64,000 nt of DNA from Candidatus Nomurabacteria bacterium (GTDB lineage Bacteria > Patescibacteriota > Minisyncoccia > Phycocordibacterales > UBA918): the NCBI GenBank assembly GCA_020632075.1, contig JACKGH010000001.1, positions 458,852 to 522,851 on the forward strand, read 5' to 3'. Position 1 is the first letter of the stretch. Each line of letters opens with the position of its first letter. The notes beneath the pieces were generated by a model. The model was given only the letters and a program-made list of their open reading frames with translations. It was not told the origin of the DNA and searched no databases. This document shows positions 1,203 through 49,274 of the stretch, piece by piece. Both the position numbers and the translations under genes were made by a program.

Positions 1203-2012
1203 TTAGGTGAAAAAATGCACGTACCAAACTAGTCCCGACAAGATCACCCCATACCATACAAACGGCCACAGTGTGTAGCGACGAATGAACTGCAAAAAGA
1301 AATGTATCACGATCAGTGCTGTTACATAGGCAATGACCGCACCAACAAACATCATAGCCCAATCAACCGCCCCTCCTTCTTTAAGAAGGTCGATAGACTT
1401 CTTAAGCCCCACCCCAAGTGTGATCGGGATCGCCAGTAAAAAAGAAAAACGAGTAGCTTCGTATCGAGACAATCCAAGCAACATACCACCAGCAATGGTC
1501 GATCCAGACCGCGACATGCCCGGCAATAGCGCTAAAGCCTGAAACAAACCGACTAGCAGACCATTTTTCACCGTAACTTCCCCATGACTTGGATTCAGAT
1601 AGTATCGCCATTCAGCATACATAAAGAAAACGGAAGCCAAGAAGAGTACCGTCGCTACCACAAGCGGGGTCTGCAAGTAGGTCTCAACGATAGATTCAAG
1701 TAACAAGCCAATAATAACTGCCGGTATAGTGCCGATCACTAAGGCATATAGAAATGTTATATCCTTTTCGTTCACTGGCAATCGACCCAACTTTCGCAAA
1801 GCAACCTGGATCAAATTCCAAATGTCATTTTTAAAATAGGTGATCACCGCGGCAGTAGTAGCAAAATGCAAAATAGCTGTAAATGCGAGATCATGAGCAT
1901 GATCGACCGCAAGCCAATCTTGGAACAGCACCAAGTGACCACTTGAAGAGACAGGTAAAAACTCAGTAATTCCTTGTACCAATCCAAGCACGATCGCATC
2001 CACCCATTCCAT
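1203..2012 (-). CDS. uppP: undecaprenyl-diphosphatase (BacA/UppP family)
   Basis: 269-aa polytopic membrane ORF; GITEFLPVSSSGHL and PGMSRSGSTI motifs typical of UppP. Confidence 0.9.
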   Translation of the reverse strand: MEWVDAIVLGLVQGITEFLPVSSSGHLVLFQDWLAVDHAHDLAFTAILHFATTAAVITYFKNDIWNLIQVALRKLGRLPVNEKDITFLYALVIGTIPAVIIGLLLESIVETYLQTPLVVATVLFLASVFFMYAEWRYYLNPSHGEVTVKNGLLVGLFQALALLPGMSRSGSTIAGGMLLGLSRYEATRFSFLLAIPITLGVGLKKSIDLLKEGGAVDWAMMFVGAVIAYVTALIVIHFFLQFIRRYTLWPFVWYGVILSGLVWYVHFFT

Positions 2013-2087: not shown

Positions 2088-2876
2088 ATGGAACCATCAA
2101 CCGATCAAACATCACCGGCAGTGCCGATCGCGATCATTTGCGGCTTTGCCATGATCGCAATCGCCATCTTCTTCACTAACAAAAACGACCAAGCCCCTGT
2201 TACAAACCAACAAACTGCTGAGCGACAAGCCGGCGTCGGTGAGGCGCGCCCAGTTGATAAGACTGATTACATTTTTGGTAATCCGAACGCACCGATCCTC
2301 ATGGTTGAGTACTCTGACTATGACTGTCCGTTTTGTAAGCAGTACCACTACACCATGGGTCAGATCATGGACGAGTATGGTGTAACCGGTCAAGTAGCAT
2401 GGGTATATCGCCAGTTCCCGCTGGGCGACCTACACCCAAACTCTCCTAAGATCTCAGAGGCTGCACTTTGTGTTGGCGACCTTGGTGGAAACGCAGCTTT
2501 CTGGAAGTTCTCTGATCTAGTATTCGAAGAGCGCGATATCGACGCACCAACTAACGTAACAAAGCTTCCTGAATACGCAGAAGCAGCAGGCGTCGATCGG
2601 ACCAAGTATATTGAGTGTGTCCAAAGTGGCCGCATGGAAGAGAAGGTACTTCAGAGCATTGAGGACGGATACAACTCCGGAGCTCGTGGCACACCGTACA
2701 CAGTACTGATCGCTGGCAATCAACAAGCCGTGATCAGTGGCGCACAGCCGTACGATACCCTTAAGGGAGTAGTACAGAACCTGATCGACCAACTCGAAGG
2801 TACATTCGACCCAAGCACAGCACAACAATCTGGAGAAGTGCCAACTACTGCAAATGGCGTTCCGATCTTGGAGTAG
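2088..2876 (+). CDS. DsbA-like thiol:disulfide oxidoreductase, membrane-anchored
   Basis: 262-aa ORF with N-terminal TM and thioredoxin-fold CPFC active site (YSDYDCPFCKQYH). Confidence 0.8.
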   Translation: MEPSTDQTSPAVPIAIICGFAMIAIAIFFTNKNDQAPVTNQQTAERQAGVGEARPVDKTDYIFGNPNAPILMVEYSDYDCPFCKQYHYTMGQIMDEYGVTGQVAWVYRQFPLGDLHPNSPKISEAALCVGDLGGNAAFWKFSDLVFEERDIDAPTNVTKLPEYAEAAGVDRTKYIECVQSGRMEEKVLQSIEDGYNSGARGTPYTVLIAGNQQAVISGAQPYDTLKGVVQNLIDQLEGTFDPSTAQQSGEVPTTANGVPILE

Positions 2877-30833: not shown

Positions 30834-31430
30834 CTATTCACACTGGCCACCAGCGCTATAAACTGCTACGGTTTCATAGAAATCTGTTGAAGCCTTATAT
30901 GCAGCGTCATGAGTATTACCATCACACTCACCACAGCTCGTCGGACAACGAGCAAACGTGTCGTCAGGCTGAATCCCATCTGCAGCAGTATCAAATCCTC
31001 CTAGACAATTTTCAGCCGTTAGCTTAAACCAGTTTTGACTAGCTGATCCAACATTGTATATGTACGTACACGCTGAGTTTGCTGAGTCGTCAGGACTCGG
31101 AAGACTTGAAATGAAATCGGGGATCAGATCATCAACGAATGGATTGATGGCACAATGCCCAGCTCCTCCGGTATCAGAGTCTGCTGTTGAGGTTGCTGCG
31201 GCGGTTGTTCCGCAGGCAGGAATATCTGGATAATGTCCATGTTGTGCTCGATACAATTCAATTGCTAACTGCAACTCTTTTAACTCCGAAAACACCTCTT
31301 TGTTACGTGCTTCAGTACGAGCATGTCCAAAATTGGCGTACAAGATAGCGGACAAGATACTGATGATCGCCACTACGACCATGATCTCAACTAAGGTGAA
31401 ACCTTTTCGTGCAAGATAGCTTTTTTTCAT
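30834..31430 (-). CDS. type IV pilin / pseudopilin (prepilin-type N-terminal methylation domain)
   Basis: 198-aa ORF; KGFTLVEIMVVVAIISIL class III signal; C-terminal Cys residues. Confidence 0.8.
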   Translation of the reverse strand: MKKSYLARKGFTLVEIMVVVAIISILSAILYANFGHARTEARNKEVFSELKELQLAIELYRAQHGHYPDIPACGTTAAATSTADSDTGGAGHCAINPFVDDLIPDFISSLPSPDDSANSACTYIYNVGSASQNWFKLTAENCLGGFDTAADGIQPDDTFARCPTSCGECDGNTHDAAYKASTDFYETVAVYSAGGQCE

Positions 31431-31479: not shown

Positions 31480-32157
31480 TTACGGCATTCGGCAGATCAC
31501 CTTTTCGAGCTCTTCTTCGTAGCGAACTGCATTCAATGGCCTAGGCTCATCAGGATAACCACCCCACAACCCGTATGAGTACCGAAACTCACTGTCAGTA
31601 TTATCGCATTTGATAACGCCCAGTCCACCAAATGGTGACACTGCGTTACAAACAGCATCAGGATTGTTATCACTCACATCACAGCTCATGAATGGATGAG
31701 GATCAGGGTAAAAAGCATTCGGTTTTTGGATACCTGGCGGCGTAAGTTCTGCTGTACGAGCAGCCATGATCTTGTACGCCGAGCGAGCTGCGTTAGTCAC
31801 GTAGATGTAGCCAGAATTATTCCCATTACGCTTCGGGTCGGTCGGCAATGCGCGAATGTACTCAGGAGCCAAGCCAACGATATACTGACCATCATCTGCA
31901 CTTGGACAATCATATATCGTGCCGATCTCACCAGACCACACCAGCGCTCCGTTGCAGCCTGGAGGGTACATTCCTTTATCTAGTTTGTACTGCTCGATCG
32001 CACTCTGCAGCGCTCTAAGATCAGCCTGTCGCTGCGCATTTCGAGACTGAACTGAGGCGTCATTGAAGTTGTAATACAACAGACTAGAAAGAATTGTGAT
32101 AACAGCCACCACAACAAGCATCTCTGGAAGAGTAAAACCTAGTGAAGAGCGATTCAT
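31480..32157 (-). CDS. type IV pilin / pseudopilin
   Basis: 225-aa ORF; GFTLPEMLVVVAVITIL prepilin motif; C-terminal Cys residues. Confidence 0.8.
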   Translation of the reverse strand: MNRSSLGFTLPEMLVVVAVITILSSLLYYNFNDASVQSRNAQRQADLRALQSAIEQYKLDKGMYPPGCNGALVWSGEIGTIYDCPSADDGQYIVGLAPEYIRALPTDPKRNGNNSGYIYVTNAARSAYKIMAARTAELTPPGIQKPNAFYPDPHPFMSCDVSDNNPDAVCNAVSPFGGLGVIKCDNTDSEFRYSYGLWGGYPDEPRPLNAVRYEEELEKVICRMP

Positions 32158-43156: not shown

Positions 43157-43205
43157 AAAAAACAAAGGCCGCGCCCACATTCGTGGGCGCGGCCTTTTGT
43201 TTTTA
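43157..43205. terminator. bidirectional intrinsic terminator between thrS and the surface-protein gene
   Basis: aaaaaacaaa-ggccgcgcccac-attc-gtgggcgcggcc-ttttgttttt. Confidence 0.9.
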
Positions 43206-43206
43206 C

Positions 43207-46200
43207 TTATGAAACAGCCTTCACTGCTTTCATGATAGCCATCTTCACGGCTTCTTGTTCAGAGGTGTATGTACCATCGAGTGCACTCGTAAGTGCAGAG
43301 ATCGCATTTTTGAGCTGCCCATCAGACAACCGAGTAGTTTCTCGCGTAAGCATGTCTGAAACCTTTTCAGAACCACCCTTACGATTGCGATAGACCGCAT
43401 CAAGGTCGGCAGAAGCGTCAGCTAGTGCAAACATTGGTCGCTTTCCGATCATCTCGTACGCAGCAACGATGTTGCCAGTCACGATCGCTTCAGCAAGTGA
43501 ACCGGTACCTTCAGGTACTGTCGCTGGAATGAACGGCTCCTGACTTGAAGACACTTGACCGACCTGACACACGTCACACAGATTACGCATGCGTGCTTCG
43601 TTGATAACGATCCAGCCGTCTTCAAGCGGGTACGTTTTCTTTGCTTCTGCGATCACTGTATCAAGCGCTTCGTTACGCTCAACTTCACCTGTGGTCGTGC
43701 CTACAAAGTGACGCACCGCATCACTTGAAAGTAATGCCTTTTGGGCGTGCGCACGGTTCTCAAGATCAGTTACTACTGCATCGTCCACCTGATGTGGATT
43801 TACCGCAGGAACTTCGACCTCGTTTTCTTTGTGGTTTTCATAACCGATCGCTGGCGTACCAGTTGGCAAATTACTCGGAGTTGCAAAGTCAGCTGGCGCT
43901 GGAGTAGTGGTCACCGACTTCACAAAGAGGTCAGGCTTCACTCCTTCCGCCTTCTGCATTGCCGCCACACCATCGAAAGATGGTGATGGTGTGGCCTTAG
44001 TAAAATTTACCGGCGAATCAGTTACGGTTCGCTTTCGGATCACCAAAAGGTAGGTAATGAAGAATGCCCATGCCACAAGCAATCCATAGAAGAGGAAAGT
44101 CATGATCGGACCAGCTTCAAAACCGGTGTATGGCACCTGTGAGAGTGAGATACCAGCAACGAGTGGCTGCTGATCGCGAGTCTGTAGCACAACTACATCA
44201 TCATCGATCGCAACAGCAACAGTACACTCATCTTCACGTGAACCTCGCTCAGCAAGCAATGTGAACTTCGTGTCACGAGTTGGACGCAAGGTAAGCTCAC
44301 CATCGTAGTAATCCTCCTTGTCACTTGCAAGGTAATCATCAGTCGTGAAGAGGATCTCACCACGATCGTCCTTGATCGTTACCTCAGTTGCGCGTGAAGT
44401 GTCCCACGTAAGAGTCACTTCATCGCCACGTGAGATACGAGTGTCTGAAATATCGAGTTCACAACGTGGTGATGAGCTTCCGCCACCGCCACCGCCGCTT
44501 GATACATCAATAGTAAGTGGACAGGTAATGGTCTTATCACCCTGCGTAGCAGTAAGAGTGTACGTAGTGTCATCAGATGGAGTTACTGACTGGCTTCCAG
44601 AAAGTGAAGTCGCATTGATGTTACTGATCGATACCGTATCAACGTTGGTTGTACTCCAGTTAAGTGTACTTTCGCTACCACGCGTGATCGAGTAGTCATC
44701 CGCAGTGAAGGTAACGTTATCAGCACACGTGAATACCGGCTCTGGATCTGCTACCGCAACTGGCGCCACACAACTCACCTGATCATTGTTCCCGTCGATC
44801 GCAGTGAGAGTGAACGTGGTTGATTCAGTTACGTTAAGTGACTGTGAACCAGTAAGTCCGACAGTTCCTATCGTTGGTGTGATCGATACTGTATTTGCGC
44901 CAGTTACTTCCCAGTTAAGTGATACTGGACCACCGCCATATGGAAGCTGGTTTGGTGTTGCAGTGAAGAATTCACATACTGGCACCGGATCTTCTGAGAC
45001 AGTTACTGGTGCCGTACAGTTCACAGTCTGATCGTTCTCACCTTTGACCGTGAGGATGTAGGTAGTGTTAGTTGTTGGAGAAACAGTATGTGTACCATCT
45101 ACAGCAACAATACCGATCCCATTATCAAGACTGACCTCAGTCGCGTTGGTGGTTTCCCAAGTCAAAGTTGTGCTGTCTCCAACGGTAATACCTGATGGAT
45201 TAGCCACGAACAGATCACAGCTTGGGAGCTTAGGCACTTCAACAGTTACCGGTACCTGACATTCTGTCACCTGGTCCTTCTGACCGATCACGGTCAGAGT
45301 GTATGTGATAGTAGCAAGCGGTGTCACGCTGATCGAACCATCTGCAGAAACTGCACCGATACCGTTGTTGATAAACACCTGATCAGCGTTTGAACTCTCC
45401 CACGTAAGGGTTGCGCTTTCACCTAGCAATATGGTGCTTGGAGTTGCAGTGAACAGATCACAGCTTGGCACTGGTACGATCGACACGTCAACCGGTACTG
45501 AACAAGTAACCGACTGACCAGTCGCTCCGTATACAGTAAGTGTGTACGTTGTATCTACTGTAGGCGATACAACGATCGAACCATCTGCAGAAACTGCACC
45601 GATACCGTTGTTCATAACAACATCAGTTGCGTTTGAAGTATTCCAGGTCAAGGTTGCGCTGTCGCCGACCATGATCGCAGTTGGATTAGCAGAGAAGTAA
45701 TCACAACTTGGAGCTGGTGGCTGTGTGACAGTCACCGGTACTGAACAAGTAACCGACTGACCAGCAAGACCTGCAACCGTCATGACGTAGGTCGTGTTGG
45801 TTGTTGGTGACACTGACACCGAACCGTCTGCAGCAACAACACCAACACCGTTGTTGATGGTTACTGATTCTGCGTTGGTTGTTTCCCATGTCAGAGTCAC
45901 TGTGCCACCGGTAGTGATCGTAGACGGAGTAGCAGTGAACATATCACAGCTCGGTGCCGGGATAGTAGTTACGGTCACTGGCACAGAACAGGTCACTGTT
46001 TGTCCAGTGCCATATGCTGTGAGTACGTATGTAGTATTGACTGTCGGTGACACAACGCGCGTACCGTCTACAGACACTGCACCGATACCGTTGTTAATAC
46101 TTACTGCAGTTGCGTTGGTTGTTTCCCAACTCAAAAGTGTCGTCTCACCAACAGTGATCACTGCTGGTGTCGCGGTGAATGAATCGCAACGTGGGACTGG

Positions 46201-47174
46201 AGTATAACAGTCGGTATCAATGAGAGTTCGAACAGTTTGGCTGTACTCCCAGGTCTGGAAGTTATTGAGTTCCTTGGCTGATGCCTTAGCTTGGTTGGTC
46301 ACTTCAAAATCACCACACTGTGCAGGAGTCTTTACGGTACCTCCCCACGTGATAGTTCCTACTTCACCTGGTTCGAGTACGTGTCCATTAAAACGAAGAG
46401 TTCGGTCGCTGGCGGTGTAGACAGGACTAGTGCCGTATCCAGCACTGAGATTCGATGACACTTGATACCAAGCGTAGTTCAGATCAGTGTCGACCACATC
46501 GACGATCTTCACTCCTCCACCAGTACAGTCAGCATCACCAACGTTCTTCACGGTGATAGTGTAGATGAGCTCGTCACCAGGTAGACCGACGGTCTTATTG
46601 ACTGATTTCTGAACATCAAGCTCACAGTACTTTGGAGTTTCTGGGGGCAGACAGGTGACTTGTACTTGCTGCACACACGACGATCCGCCGTTTGACAAAG
46701 CTTGCAAGGTAAAGATGGTACTTTCCTGAAGGTTATTGATCACCATCGAGCCTGAATCCGCTGAGACAGTATTGCCGTTGATCGTAATGGTGTCGAAACC
46801 ACTCGTTGACCAATTGAGGGTAAAGCTCTCACCAGTAGTTACAAGTGTTTTGCTAGCATCAAGTACACACTCGATAAAATCACTACTGTAAGCACCACCT
46901 GAAGTGTCCGTCGTGTAATTGAGATCAAAATCTCCACCAAGGTCCAAATTCGAACCTAGATCGAGATTTGTATCAAGATTTAGACCTGAGTTCAGGTCGA
47001 GATTTGTATCTAAATTGGTCCCAGGGCTAAAATCGATCCCTGAGTCGAGCTGCGTGAGCGCGATCGCAGTACTTGCTGGAGGCAAGACCGTGGTCACCAC
47101 AAACGCAAAGACCACCATCACACTTGCGATGGTCTTGAATTTCTTGTTCATAACATTACGCTTAGTTTGATTCA
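43207..47174 (-). CDS. giant cell-surface protein: signal peptide, DUF11-like domain, ~8 tandem Ig-like repeats, VPYTG + TM + RKR, then a ~280-aa cytoplasmic domain
   Basis: Start MNQTKRNVMNKKFKTIASVMVVFAFVV has AGGAG upstream (the 6-frame ORF starts at 47211); ~95-aa repeats CDxFTATP...TLTWETTNA...NNGIG...VSPTxNTTYxLT...VTCxVPV; Gly6 linker; VPYTGFEAGPIMTFLFYGLLVAWAFFITYLLVIRKR. Confidence 0.85.
44180..46190 (-). repeat. coding tandem repeats (~285 bp, ~8 degenerate copies) for Ig-like domains of the giant surface protein
   Basis: Periodic ~95-aa protein repeats bounded by conserved Cys; visible as a recurring DNA pattern. Confidence 0.7.
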
Positions 47175-47331
47175 TAACATCTATACTCCTGTCTACACCT
47201 GTGCGACACAAGAGTAATGAAGGTTACGAAACAGCGCCTACAATAAGGCTATCTAAGAACGTTGAGCGACTAGCTCACGGAGAACAAATGATGGAAAATC
47301 ATAGTTCAAAAAGCACCTTTTGTCAAGGAAT

Positions 47332-48054
47332 CTAGAGTGCTTGTACGTCAACGAGCTTGGCCTCTACGATGTAGCGATCGTCAACACTTCCAAAGCTGTT
47401 ACAAGTGGCCAACGTCAGCGTTTTACTGGTGCCTGCAATTGGCACTGTCACATCCTGGGCTCGAGCTCGATACACTTTTTCAACTCGATACTCATACATA
47501 CCATCTTCAGAATAGAGCTTGATCTTATCGCCCCACTCTAGATTCTGAATACCATTGAAAGCCTGGAAGTTTTTATTGAAGACTTGCGGCAAATAACTCG
47601 AGTGACCCAAGATGAAGACGGTCCCTTCCTGCGCCAACGTTGCAGAATCAGGATGCCGAACGACACCCTCGAGCAAAGACGCGTCAAGATCAGCGATCGT
47701 ACGTGAGGTCGGATTAAGCACTGTCACGTCTTTCTCAAGACGATCGATCACCAATCGCATTGGCAACACACCTTCAACTGAGATTGACTCAGACGACACT
47801 GCTGGAGCCACTTCAGGCTCATCTATTTCTTCTACCACTTCCTCGACTTCTGCTTCTGCTGTTTCTTCAGCCTGCGCACGCGGCGTAACCGAAACCACCT
47901 CAGTAGCTTCTTCTGTTTCCATTGTGGTTTCGGCCGGCGGCTCAGGAATAAAGTCGACCGCCACCAACAAAATGTACGTGAGCGTGAACACCAAAAAGAA
48001 CGTGCCAAGAAACACGGACTTCTTTGCCCAGATTTGATCAAACAGTGCGTTCAT
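47332..48054 (-). CDS. sortase (class undetermined)
   Basis: 240-aa ORF; N-terminal TM anchor; FILGHSS (His) and TLTLATC (TLxTC catalytic Cys) motifs; immediately upstream of the giant surface protein on the same strand. Confidence 0.8.
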   Translation of the reverse strand: MNALFDQIWAKKSVFLGTFFLVFTLTYILLVAVDFIPEPPAETTMETEEATEVVSVTPRAQAEETAEAEVEEVVEEIDEPEVAPAVSSESISVEGVLPMRLVIDRLEKDVTVLNPTSRTIADLDASLLEGVVRHPDSATLAQEGTVFILGHSSYLPQVFNKNFQAFNGIQNLEWGDKIKLYSEDGMYEYRVEKVYRARAQDVTVPIAGTSKTLTLATCNSFGSVDDRYIVEAKLVDVQAL

Positions 48055-48206: not shown

Positions 48207-49274
48207 ATGAACAATGTGTCAGAAAAACAAAAGGACTCAGTCCTCAAGACGCTCGCGATCGTAGGTTTTATTGGTGTAATTATTTTGATCGCGTGGTTGT
48301 CTGTAAAATTTGTAGCCGTCGCACCAGGAGCGTTTTCATCACTCGCTTCCCTTGCCGGTACACTCAACGAACGAGAATCAGCGATCCAGGAGACTGGAGC
48401 AAAGCAAACATTTACAGTAACCAGTGACGCAACCCTTGTTGCAGCTGGTACTTCGGTGGGGCTTTCTTGGGAAGACACCGAAACACCCGGATCATATGCA
48501 TTCTTTTACGATTGTGTTGAAGGGGTAGCGATCGACCTCGTTAATGAAGACGGCGTACAAAGTATTAGCTGTGGCACAAACTATAATCTTGGCAAAACCA
48601 CTTCTCTTTTGCTTACGATCGATTCAGAAAAGAATCGATACACTGATGTTGACTACACTGTCTCGTTCCTTGGCACGAACGACACCACTCCACGGGCAAG
48701 CGGAACTTCATCACTGACTGTCGTGAATAGTAATATCAGCTCTTACGTACCAACAACTGTTGCAACTATCGATACGGAACTGCCGGCACAAGACCAGGTA
48801 GTCGTGGCGACTCCGGAACCTGAGATTGAAGCACCTATCGTTGAAACTCAACCAACACCAAGCGTACCAACAACCCCAACCTACGAACAAGAGTACGTAT
48901 ACACCATTCCGACTTCTGACCCGAATGGTCGCACTGATCTTGGTACACGCTTCATCGCAGCTGGATCGATCGTCGGAAATACTTTCTTCTCCGAAGCAAT
49001 TAAGCGCGGTGACGATGGCGCAATCCAGTTCGCTGTAAAGAACTACGGTACCAAAACCTCAGCTAAGTGGACTTTCTCAGTCACACTTCCAGGTGGTGGC
49101 ACCTACAACTCAGCTGAGCAACAGCCACTGAAGCCAAATGAAGAAGCAACACTGACCATCGGTTTCCCTGAAGCATTCGGCTCTAGTCACACCTTTGTTG
49201 TTACTATCGACGAATCAACTGACCGGAACACCATCAACGACCGATTCGCACAACCTGTCACATTCATAAACTAA
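48207..49274 (+). CDS. hypothetical membrane-anchored extracellular protein
   Basis: 355-aa ORF; N-terminal TM (LAIVGFIGVIILIAWL); Thr/Pro-rich linker; terminator follows. Confidence 0.55.
   Translation: MNNVSEKQKDSVLKTLAIVGFIGVIILIAWLSVKFVAVAPGAFSSLASLAGTLNERESAIQETGAKQTFTVTSDATLVAAGTSVGLSWEDTETPGSYAFFYDCVEGVAIDLVNEDGVQSISCGTNYNLGKTTSLLLTIDSEKNRYTDVDYTVSFLGTNDTTPRASGTSSLTVVNSNISSYVPTTVATIDTELPAQDQVVVATPEPEIEAPIVETQPTPSVPTTPTYEQEYVYTIPTSDPNGRTDLGTRFIAAGSIVGNTFFSEAIKRGDDGAIQFAVKNYGTKTSAKWTFSVTLPGGGTYNSAEQQPLKPNEEATLTIGFPEAFGSSHTFVVTIDESTDRNTINDRFAQPVTFIN

Follow-up and report, generated by a model that had tools for sequence, protein, structure and literature searches.

A candidate sortase substrate of Patescibacteria whose internal sorting-signal-like module precedes a conserved cytoplasmic domain

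We analyzed a 64,000-nucleotide (nt) stretch of the Candidatus Nomurabacteria bacterium assembly GCA_020632075.1 (contig JACKGH010000001.1, forward-strand positions 458,852 to 522,851; hereafter the window, in whose coordinates all positions are given), in which a sortase gene is followed by the gene of a large surface protein precursor. The precursor carries the pentapeptide VPYTG, a transmembrane (TM) helix, and a basic RKR cluster in the manner of an LPXTG sorting signal, and then continues for another 273 residues up to its stop codon. The reading that we favor, with moderate confidence, is that this gene encodes a two-part precursor cut by the neighboring sortase between the Thr and Gly of VPYTG, with the ectodomain passing to the wall and a TM-anchored cytoplasmic module remaining behind.

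The sortase and its candidate substrate

The two genes and the catalytic features of the sortase are located as follows.

47332-48054, minus strand: sortase gene, an open reading frame (ORF) of 240 amino acids (aa) with a Pfam PF04203 match
47956-48015, minus strand: N-terminal TM segment of the sortase, aa14-33, followed by an acidic linker and then the catalytic domain
47596-47610, minus strand: sortase His151 in LGHSS, catalytic motif
47401-47415, minus strand: sortase Cys218 in TLATC, catalytic motif
47371-47382, minus strand: sortase Arg227 in DDRY, catalytic motif
43207-47175, minus strand: large precursor gene, 1322 aa counted from the ATG at 47175

In its longest version, the large ORF extends over 43207-47211 (minus strand) from a TTG at 47211 and encodes 1334 aa, and all residue numbers of the precursor follow this 1334-aa numbering. 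The ATG at 47175, with AGGAG 10 nt upstream, is the likely start. Both genes are on the minus strand, with the sortase gene upstream and a gap of ~120-180 nt before the large ORF.

The 240-aa protein matched PF04203 with an E-value of 1.1e-19 and 70.8 bits (cutoff 26.6), covering all 125 model positions, and its catalytic His, Cys, and Arg were invariant among 22 aligned orthologues. All NCBIfam class models (SrtD, class C, D, E, and marine) scored far below their cutoffs, with the best score for SrtD (48.8 bits, cutoff 140), followed by class D (44.3 bits, cutoff 165) and class E (38.7 bits, cutoff 160). The nearest solved structures were 4d70, 2ln7, and 2kw8 (E 1e-7 to 1e-5), which are class D and class A sortases. 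Judged by these profile comparisons, the protein is a genuine sortase, and because the class-specific cutoffs are not reached, it belongs to no curated class. A genuine enzyme with intact catalytic residues supports cleavage of the neighboring product.

A preliminary description of the window, made from its letters alone, had placed a sortase with His and Cys motifs directly 5' of, and co-oriented with, a protein of ~1320 aa that has a signal peptide, a DUF11-like domain, a Gly6 linker, and a VPYTG-hydrophobic segment-RKR layout followed by a long tail. Each of these features was recovered here, with hidden Markov model (HMM) support for the sortase and the DUF11 domain.

The sorting-signal-like module

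The module occupies the end of the extracellular part and the membrane segment of the precursor.

44107-44205, minus strand: low-confidence stalk, ~aa1003-1035, with a predicted local distance difference test score (pLDDT) of 45-65 in AlphaFold2 and no secondary structure
44107-44136, minus strand: decapeptide VPYTGFEAGP at the end of the stalk, aa1026-1035, nearly invariant among orthologues
44122-44136, minus strand: VPYTG, aa1026-1030, an xPxTG-type pentapeptide
44029-44106, minus strand: TM helix, aa1036-1058, then RKR, aa1059-1061, from hydropathy and AlphaFold2

All three features of an LPXTG signal are present, namely an xPxTG motif outside the membrane, then a hydrophobic helix, and then a basic cluster; the peptide stretches spanning the VPYTG site read SLSQVPYTGFEAGP and GISLSQVPYTGFEAGP. 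By hydropathy the hydrophobic stretch covers ~aa1033-1058, and an AlphaFold2 model of aa917-1334 placed the unstructured stalk at 1006-1034 and a confident helix at 1035-1062 (pLDDT ~91), followed by a disordered linker and two tail domains. This canonical three-part geometry, with xPxTG in a disordered stalk ahead of a confident TM helix and basic residues, is consistent with cleavage. The extreme C-terminal placement of an LPXTG-type signal is found only in the minority of orthologues that are split, with KKKVS before the stop codon, and not in this precursor.

We measured the conservation of each region as the mean frequency of the commonest residue across 59 orthologues. The highest value in the protein was that of VPYTGFEAGP (0.98), bearing out the expectation that VPYTG would be kept in orthologues, while the 20 residues before the motif scored 0.73, the TM helix 0.66, and the linker after it 0.29; within the cytoplasmic part, a P-x-[ND]-L-P motif scored 0.64, domain A 0.60, and domain B 0.77. 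The median best high-scoring-segment-pair identity of the ectodomain was ~42%, and the conservation of the decapeptide against this background also argues for cleavage. Variants among homologues included LPYTG, VPHTG, IPYTG, MPYTG, and TPYTG, in which P, T, and G were invariant and position 1 was V, L, I, M, or T. With 98% conservation of the decapeptide and the complete layout present in 70 of the 80 species-level genomes, the recurrence of VPYTG in these alignments exceeds chance.

The residues kept in the TM helix (T1038, F1041, Y1042, L1044, L1045, W1048, and Y1054) have a spacing of roughly i+3/i+4, which leads us to infer a specific contact made through one side of the helix. Ordinary, throw-away sorting-signal helices are unlike that, and conservation along approximately one face supports a remnant that is retained after cleavage. 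A search of the window for other sorting signals (an xPxTG-type motif and then a hydrophobic stretch) returned none beyond the large-precursor family, and a search of ~1.3 Mb of related loci for signals with a C-terminal TM segment and a basic end likewise returned only this family.

The cytoplasmic tail

Beyond RKR, the tail is made up of a linker and two folded domains.

43783-44028, minus strand: poorly conserved cytoplasmic linker, aa1062-1143 (conservation as above)
43864-43878, minus strand: P-x-[ND]-L-P motif, aa1112-1116, within the linker
43546-43782, minus strand: tail domain A, aa1144-1222, helix-strand-helix-helix-strand-helix, AAA+-lid-like
43210-43497, minus strand: tail domain B, aa1239-1334, a helical bundle, collar-like

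Domain A carries the motifs LE..AH...L.S.DA and YP.EDGW.V.N..R, and domain B carries GSLAEAI, RPMFALADA.ADLDA.YR, and LTSALDGTY..E..AVK.AIMKA.K. The tail had no match in Pfam, NCBIfam, or the PDB sequences, and a PDB profile search gave nothing better than E 0.3. When 23 tail sequences were scanned singly against Pfam at E<=10, only scattered single-member noise was obtained, and a profile search with the trimmed tail domains found only unannotated Patescibacteria proteins and no distant relatives with annotated domains.

The fold prediction proposed in the preliminary description resolved the C-terminal region into the two domains (mean pLDDT 84.6 for a model of aa1100-1334). Foldseek ranked clamp-loader subunits top for the tail model, and domains A and B together align structurally to domains II-III of clamp-loader tau, delta, and delta', although this resemblance is weak (~200 columns, E 2.5e-3 to 0.1, TM-score 0.33-0.38) and without sequence support. 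In the model, the tail looks like clamp-loader domains II-III (the AAA+ lid plus collar) minus the ATPase domain: ATPase domain I with its Walker A/B motifs was not found in the tail, which begins with the disordered linker and then the lid-like domain. The lid and collar domains of clamp loaders are interaction and oligomerization modules, and by this analogy the tail is most likely a protein-protein interaction or oligomerization scaffold. It had been proposed earlier that the protein could be a signaling module, an idea that gained no direct support here; Pfam and NCBIfam scans and the fold comparison revealed no recognizable signaling, DNA-binding, or enzymatic domain in the tail.

A second sortase-motif-like string, LPTGT, had also been pointed out, and it is present at aa1115-1119. 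We rejected it as a second sorting motif, as the string is cytoplasmic and its T and G are not conserved. It overlaps the P-x-[ND]-L-P motif, for which homologues have NLPVG, NLPMA, DLPVA, and NLPIE, and it is P115, L118, and P119 (numbering of alignment A1) that are invariant. Because the pLDDT of P-x-[ND]-L-P (~70 in the aa1100-1334 model) is higher than that of its surroundings, the motif may, tentatively, dock onto the folded tail domains.

The loop between domains A and B contains a CxxC pair (CDVC, aa1212-1215, 43567-43578, minus strand), which occurs in one homologue subclade (LC.VC, VC.TC) and is missing from others, and which could serve as a metal or redox site particular to that lineage.

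Distribution and synteny

A tail-profile scan over one genome per GTDB species yielded 80 loci. We also searched a 57-residue profile of the signal region against 1.84 billion representative proteins (a 50%-identity library), obtaining 916 proteins at E<=1e-3 and 295 at E<=1e-10, and a search with the C-terminal module gave >120 homologues, all of them unannotated and all from Patescibacteria. The relatives were restricted to this phylum (Paceibacteria, 'Nomurabacteria', and Kaiserbacteria). Hundreds of related species have the layout in common. By class, the 80 loci comprised 70 fused, 6 split, 3 ectodomain-less, and 1 uninformative. In the fused loci, one uninterrupted ORF encodes the signal peptide, an ectodomain of ~360-1135 aa, the motif [V/T/I]P[Y/H]TGF, the TM helix, and the tail, with the motif lying 271-333 residues from the C-terminus.

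Among the 137 top motif-bearing representatives, 80 had the full tail, ~37 stopped right after domain A, about a dozen were intermediate, and 6 stopped 38-41 residues past the start of the motif, mostly with KKKVS before the stop codon. The ~37 'half-tail' proteins (e.g., P0137, P0150, P0188, P0228, and P0247) end in YP.EDGWVV.N..R...LL. The one case checked, P0117 (L084/L085), is real, as the available downstream sequence encodes no domain B. To judge from these endpoints, the smallest cytoplasmic unit appears to consist of domain A and P-x-N-L-P. We did not accept the shortened tail of P0114 as a variant, because frameshifts abound on its contig.

The preliminary description had allowed that the C-terminal region might be a separate gene, fused by frameshift or assembly error. 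Such an artefact, in which a canonical sortase substrate was joined to an unrelated downstream gene, could call on the minority of relatives with two genes and on one relative whose long-read contig is visibly fragmented by frameshifts. The comparative data rule it out and we give it next to no credence: the ORF is uninterrupted in 70 of the 80 independent species-level genomes, at a tight motif-to-C-terminus distance, the full fused tail is found in 80 of the 137 representatives, and the separate-gene minority reflects real, conserved fission. The fragmented relative, L086 (ERZ1714332 contig_782, 993 kb, near-complete, long-read), has gyrB, thrS, dnaE, the sortase, and a substrate gene split into many small ORFs; the cause is pervasive frameshift errors, and its truncated proteins, P0114 among them, should not be taken for variants.

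A single same-strand sortase was located upstream in 70 of 70 loci with enough upstream flank, and the conserved order was gyrB, orf355 (divergent), sortase, large precursor gene, and thrS (convergent). In a distant relative (L081, ERZ5402580 contig, 52 kb), the tail is only 26% identical and the sortase and neighborhood are still kept; the order common to it and the window is pheS-pheT-gyrB-orf-sortase-substrate-thrS-dnaE-rnhB-...-nusB/NUDIX-rnc-smc-rnr. On these gene orders, the synteny of the clade is unusually deep. The pairing in all 70 loci and in the 26%-identical relative is consistent with the sortase acting on the precursor.

In ~30 of the 80 relatives (L044, L048, L052, L056, L058, L060, L076, and others), one to three additional genes separate the sortase from the substrate, with gaps of 0.9-4 kb, and the products of several of them are small secreted proteins that have signal peptides. 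This pattern suggests that the interval between sortase and substrate is an insertion hotspot.

Split and ectodomain-less forms

Split loci (L051, L053, L057, L062, L077, and L078) have an ectodomain gene and a separate gene for a soluble tail. The ectodomain genes of L051 and L057 end in TEVPYTGFEAGPVLTFIFYGLLTLWALFVAY.V.IKKKVS before the stop codon, that is, VPYTGFEAGP-TM-KKKVS, and the next gene (216-241 aa) encodes the tail without a signal peptide or TM segment; that of L077 ends in IRKKEQKLY. In these 3 loci the ectodomain stops 2-7 residues past the basic patch, as a canonical C-terminal sorting signal does, which argues for cleavage. The ectodomain of L053 ends 16 residues past the basic patch, and those of L062 and L078 terminate in an amphipathic peptide (..KKK[VL].ML..K[HY]S..) that is conserved and also seen in several representatives; the conserved end peptide of other split forms is KKVQMLAAKHSHxPW. 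The fissions are real because they recur in independent genomes with conserved ends.

Ectodomain-less proteins (L043, L049, and L055; 17 clusters at 90% identity) have an N-terminal hydrophobic segment, a turn G-x-[FY]-G-x-G, a homologous TM helix (LFY.LL....SYRL), and a full tail, with the P-Y-T gone, and their TM helix and tail retain ~50% identity. Loss of the ectodomain has removed exactly the residues N-terminal to the predicted Thr-Gly scissile bond and spared those on its C-terminal side, a pattern that supports cleavage at this bond. Judged across the fused, split, and ectodomain-less forms, the TM-plus-tail unit is the evolutionary constant and can work without a covalent join to the ectodomain.

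These forms bear on 2 alternatives. In the first and main one, the precursor is never cut and functions as a type I membrane adhesin or receptor, the TM helix coupling its ectodomain to the cytoplasmic domain; VPYTGFEAGP then has a structural or partner-binding purpose next to the membrane, and the sortase is a housekeeping enzyme for other proteins. Several observations weigh against cleavage and, for the most part, suit this alternative. Conservation is far wider than 5 residues, running from RDQQPLVAGISL through GFEAGP and including one face of the TM helix, and it could reflect a structural or partner-binding role and not sortase recognition. The anchor HMMs (PF00746 and TIGR01167) had no match to the motif region at E<=0.1 in searches of Pfam and NCBIfam. 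The neighborhood (pheST-gyrB-...-thrS-dnaE) is syntenic throughout the clade, and the adjacency of the sortase therefore carries less weight than in a genome whose gene order had been shuffled. The sortase beside the ectodomain-less proteins keeps its His, Cys, and Arg though the motif has been lost, and must therefore have other substrates or roles there. The weakness of the clamp-loader resemblance also counts against the fuller account of the tail.

Other observations speak against an uncleaved receptor. In the 3 split lineages that end a few residues past the basic patch, the tail is free and soluble, so that covalent coupling is dispensable, and selection still maintains the TM helix and tail in the ectodomain-less lineages, so the tail needs no ectodomain. 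The loss of P-Y-T with retention of G-x-[FY]-G-x-G is what a scissile bond predicts, and the motif is in a flexible stalk and not in a folded element. Because split and ectodomain-less forms exist, we rate this alternative below cleavage and hold it to be unlikely. A free, soluble tail argues as well against any signaling that depends strictly on cleavage.

In the second alternative, the tail assists sorting ahead of cleavage, oligomerizing through the collar-like domain B or docking the precursor at a cytoplasmic site or machine, presenting the signal to the sortase, and being degraded after cleavage without a function of its own. The collar-like and lid-like folds are typical of interaction and oligomerization modules, and the tail, fused or split, is tightly associated with the sortase and substrate genes throughout the clade. 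However, the ectodomain-less lineages have nothing to sort by the signal and still conserve the TM helix and tail, the half-tail subclass is without domain B, and canonical sortase substrates need no such domain; we consider this alternative quite improbable.

Proposed maturation of the precursor

Under the favored cleavage reading, Sec would export the acidic, disulfide-bounded repeat ectodomain, and the single conserved TM helix would hold the precursor in the membrane with RKR inside, both as predicted from the sequence. The membrane-anchored neighboring sortase would then attack the exposed Thr-Gly bond of VPYTG in the flexible stalk and transfer the ectodomain to the cell wall, or release it; that known sortases accept VPxTG-type motifs lends support to this step. 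G-FEAGP-TM-RKR-tail would be left in the membrane as an independent conserved membrane protein, with the P-x-[ND]-L-P motif, the AAA+-lid-like domain A, and the collar-like helical domain B as its cytoplasmic elements. In most lineages, where both parts are one polypeptide, one TM-tail unit would be deposited per ectodomain sorted.

A further-reaching idea, which we regard as rather doubtful, is that one translation product gives two functional proteins across the membrane, a wall-linked immunoglobulin (Ig)-repeat protein and a clamp-loader-like scaffold, with the sortase as maturation protease, and that each sorting event leaves a stoichiometric intracellular 'receipt' that couples surface output to a process in the cytoplasm, for instance envelope growth, division, or even chromosome/replisome tethering. 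The tethering part of this idea derives from the delta/tau-like fold and the gyrB/dnaE neighborhood.

The ectodomain

The remaining parts of the precursor precede the stalk.

47059-47175, minus strand: signal-peptide-like N-terminus, MNQTKRNVMNKKFKTIASVMVVFAFVVTTVLPPASTAIA, with predicted cleavage before LT, from hydropathy and an A-x-A pattern
46651-46869, minus strand: divergent N-terminal Ig-like module, aa115-187, from Cys positions and the L[TSN]W register
46273-46620, minus strand: DUF11 domain, aa198-313, PF01345
44497-46188, minus strand: seven tandem Cys-bounded Ig-like repeats, aa342-905, 81-83 aa each, from Cys positions and the L[TSN]W register
44479-44496, minus strand: Gly6 linker, aa906-911, from the sequence
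44206-44463, minus strand: membrane-proximal Ig-like beta-sandwich, aa917-1002, all beta in AlphaFold2 with pLDDT ~95

The DUF11 domain scored above cutoff with both PF01345 (E=1.9e-7, 31.8 bits, cutoff 24.6) and TIGR01451 (25 bits, cutoff 24). The repeats had been described earlier as about eight tandem units of ~95 aa; their Cys-bounded, Ig-like character held, and their period and number needed revision, with seven units in tandem and nine L[TSN]W Ig-like modules in total (one N-terminal, seven tandem, and one after Gly6). The DNA of the Ig-repeat region is not repetitive. In composition, the ectodomain is rich in Thr, Val, and Ser and strongly acidic (net charge -78), Lys is scarce, and no YPKN-like pilin motif was found in it. 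The missing pilin motif and few Lys neither support nor strictly exclude polymerization of the ectodomain.

Neighboring genes and other features of the window

Several features flank the sortase and precursor genes.

47298-47326, minus strand: promoter-like site, TTGACA-17-TATGAT, 11/12 matches in a consensus scan only, between the sortase stop codon and the large gene start
43164-43197, no strand assigned: terminator-like hairpin with a perfect 15-bp GC-rich stem and T-runs on both strands, between the large gene and the convergent thrS
48207-49274, plus strand: divergent neighbor orf355, 355 aa, with an N-terminal TM anchor and two Ig/CARDB-like ectodomains

The position of the promoter-like site suggests that a promoter of its own may drive the substrate gene, and the hairpin is probably a shared bidirectional terminator of the substrate gene and thrS. 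The product of orf355 consists of the TM anchor, a Cys-bounded Ig-like domain, a Pro/Thr-rich linker, and a CARDB-like domain (weak, below the Pfam cutoff), and among relatives it keeps a membrane-adjacent P.AF..LAS motif and F.V.N.G...S..W. Almost all of the 80 related loci carry orf355 in synteny with the sortase (identity 32-57%), and it may belong to the sortase/substrate cassette as its third component.

The remaining genes of the window are housekeeping genes, including dnaE, rpoB/C, gyrB, pheST, rpoD, dnaG, and others. We also identified BacA, the undecaprenyl-pyrophosphate phosphatase, at 1203-2012 (minus strand) and a DsbA/thioredoxin-like protein at 2088-2876 (plus strand). The latter could form the disulfides of the Cys-bounded Ig repeats; MdbA-like oxidoreductases of the Candidate Phyla Radiation (CPR) have been discussed previously (PMC6744442). 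Two adjacent genes at 30834-31430 and 31480-32157 (both minus strand) encode type IV pilin-like proteins with the prepilin N-terminal methylation motif (PF07963), and by this motif a second type of surface-appendage system is predicted within the window.

Significance and comparison with known systems

By definition, and in the software that predicts them, sortase substrates have their signal at the end of the polypeptide, and what is left in the membrane is usually treated as waste. The large-precursor family, with its 916 representatives, breaks this C-terminal-signal rule, and the remnant predicted for it is a conserved, folded cytoplasmic protein. Predictors that demand a C-terminal signal miss the main candidate sortase substrate of the clade. 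If cleavage does take place, the sortase paradigm would extend to two-part precursors, a new cytoplasmic domain family would be defined, and a core, syntenic module of the cell surface of Paceibacteria (Patescibacteria/CPR), a group whose envelope is little understood, would become accessible to study for the first time. Sortases are widespread in CPR bacteria (PMC6744442). In the literature, we found no prior description of VPYTG signals, of an internal LPXTG, or of a sorting signal followed by a conserved cytoplasmic domain. The tail is a new, uncharacterized cytoplasmic domain family, and the system is a sortase/sorting-signal variant that has not been described before.

The LPXTG signal and sortase of Staphylococcus aureus (protein A and SrtA) are alike in the signal peptide, the xPxTG in a flexible stalk, the hydrophobic helix, the basic patch, and an adjacent membrane-anchored Cys/His/Arg sortase. 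Here, in contrast, the signal is not C-terminal and is followed by ~273 conserved, folded residues, the V-P-Y-T-G has an invariant FEAGP extension, the TM helix is conserved in sequence, the anchor HMMs do not match, and the sortase is outside the curated classes. In Streptococcus pyogenes, the pilin motifs EVPTG and VPPTG are processed by sortase Spy0129 (PMC3019223), sharing with the present system a Val-Pro-x-Thr-Gly-type motif and a sortase encoded beside its substrate; those pilins are polymerized via Lys and have the signal at the extreme C-terminus, whereas the precursor has no pilin motif and has a long cytoplasmic domain.

A membrane remnant with a biological role of its own is known from C-pep sensing in Streptococcus gordonii, where, as described in PMC11326707 (its ref. 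61), the SGO_1180 two-component system senses what SrtA leaves in the membrane. C-pep consists of no more than a TM peptide, which a separate kinase reads, whereas the remnant considered here would carry a 270-aa folded domain and has no linked kinase or regulator. The tail's likeness to clamp-loader tau/gamma, delta, and delta' (domains II-III) and to isolated AAA+ lids (the Lon alpha domain and the N-terminal domain of Pol epsilon subunit B) is at the level of fold only; compared with clamp loaders, it is without ATPase domain I, has no sequence similarity and low TM-scores, and is membrane-tethered. GlyGly-CTERM with rhombosortase is a three-part C-terminal sorting signal (PMC6219818), and both it and PEP-CTERM with exosortase resemble the present module in combining a motif, a TM helix, a basic cluster, and a dedicated membrane enzyme, but they use other enzymes and motifs, and their signals are strictly C-terminal.

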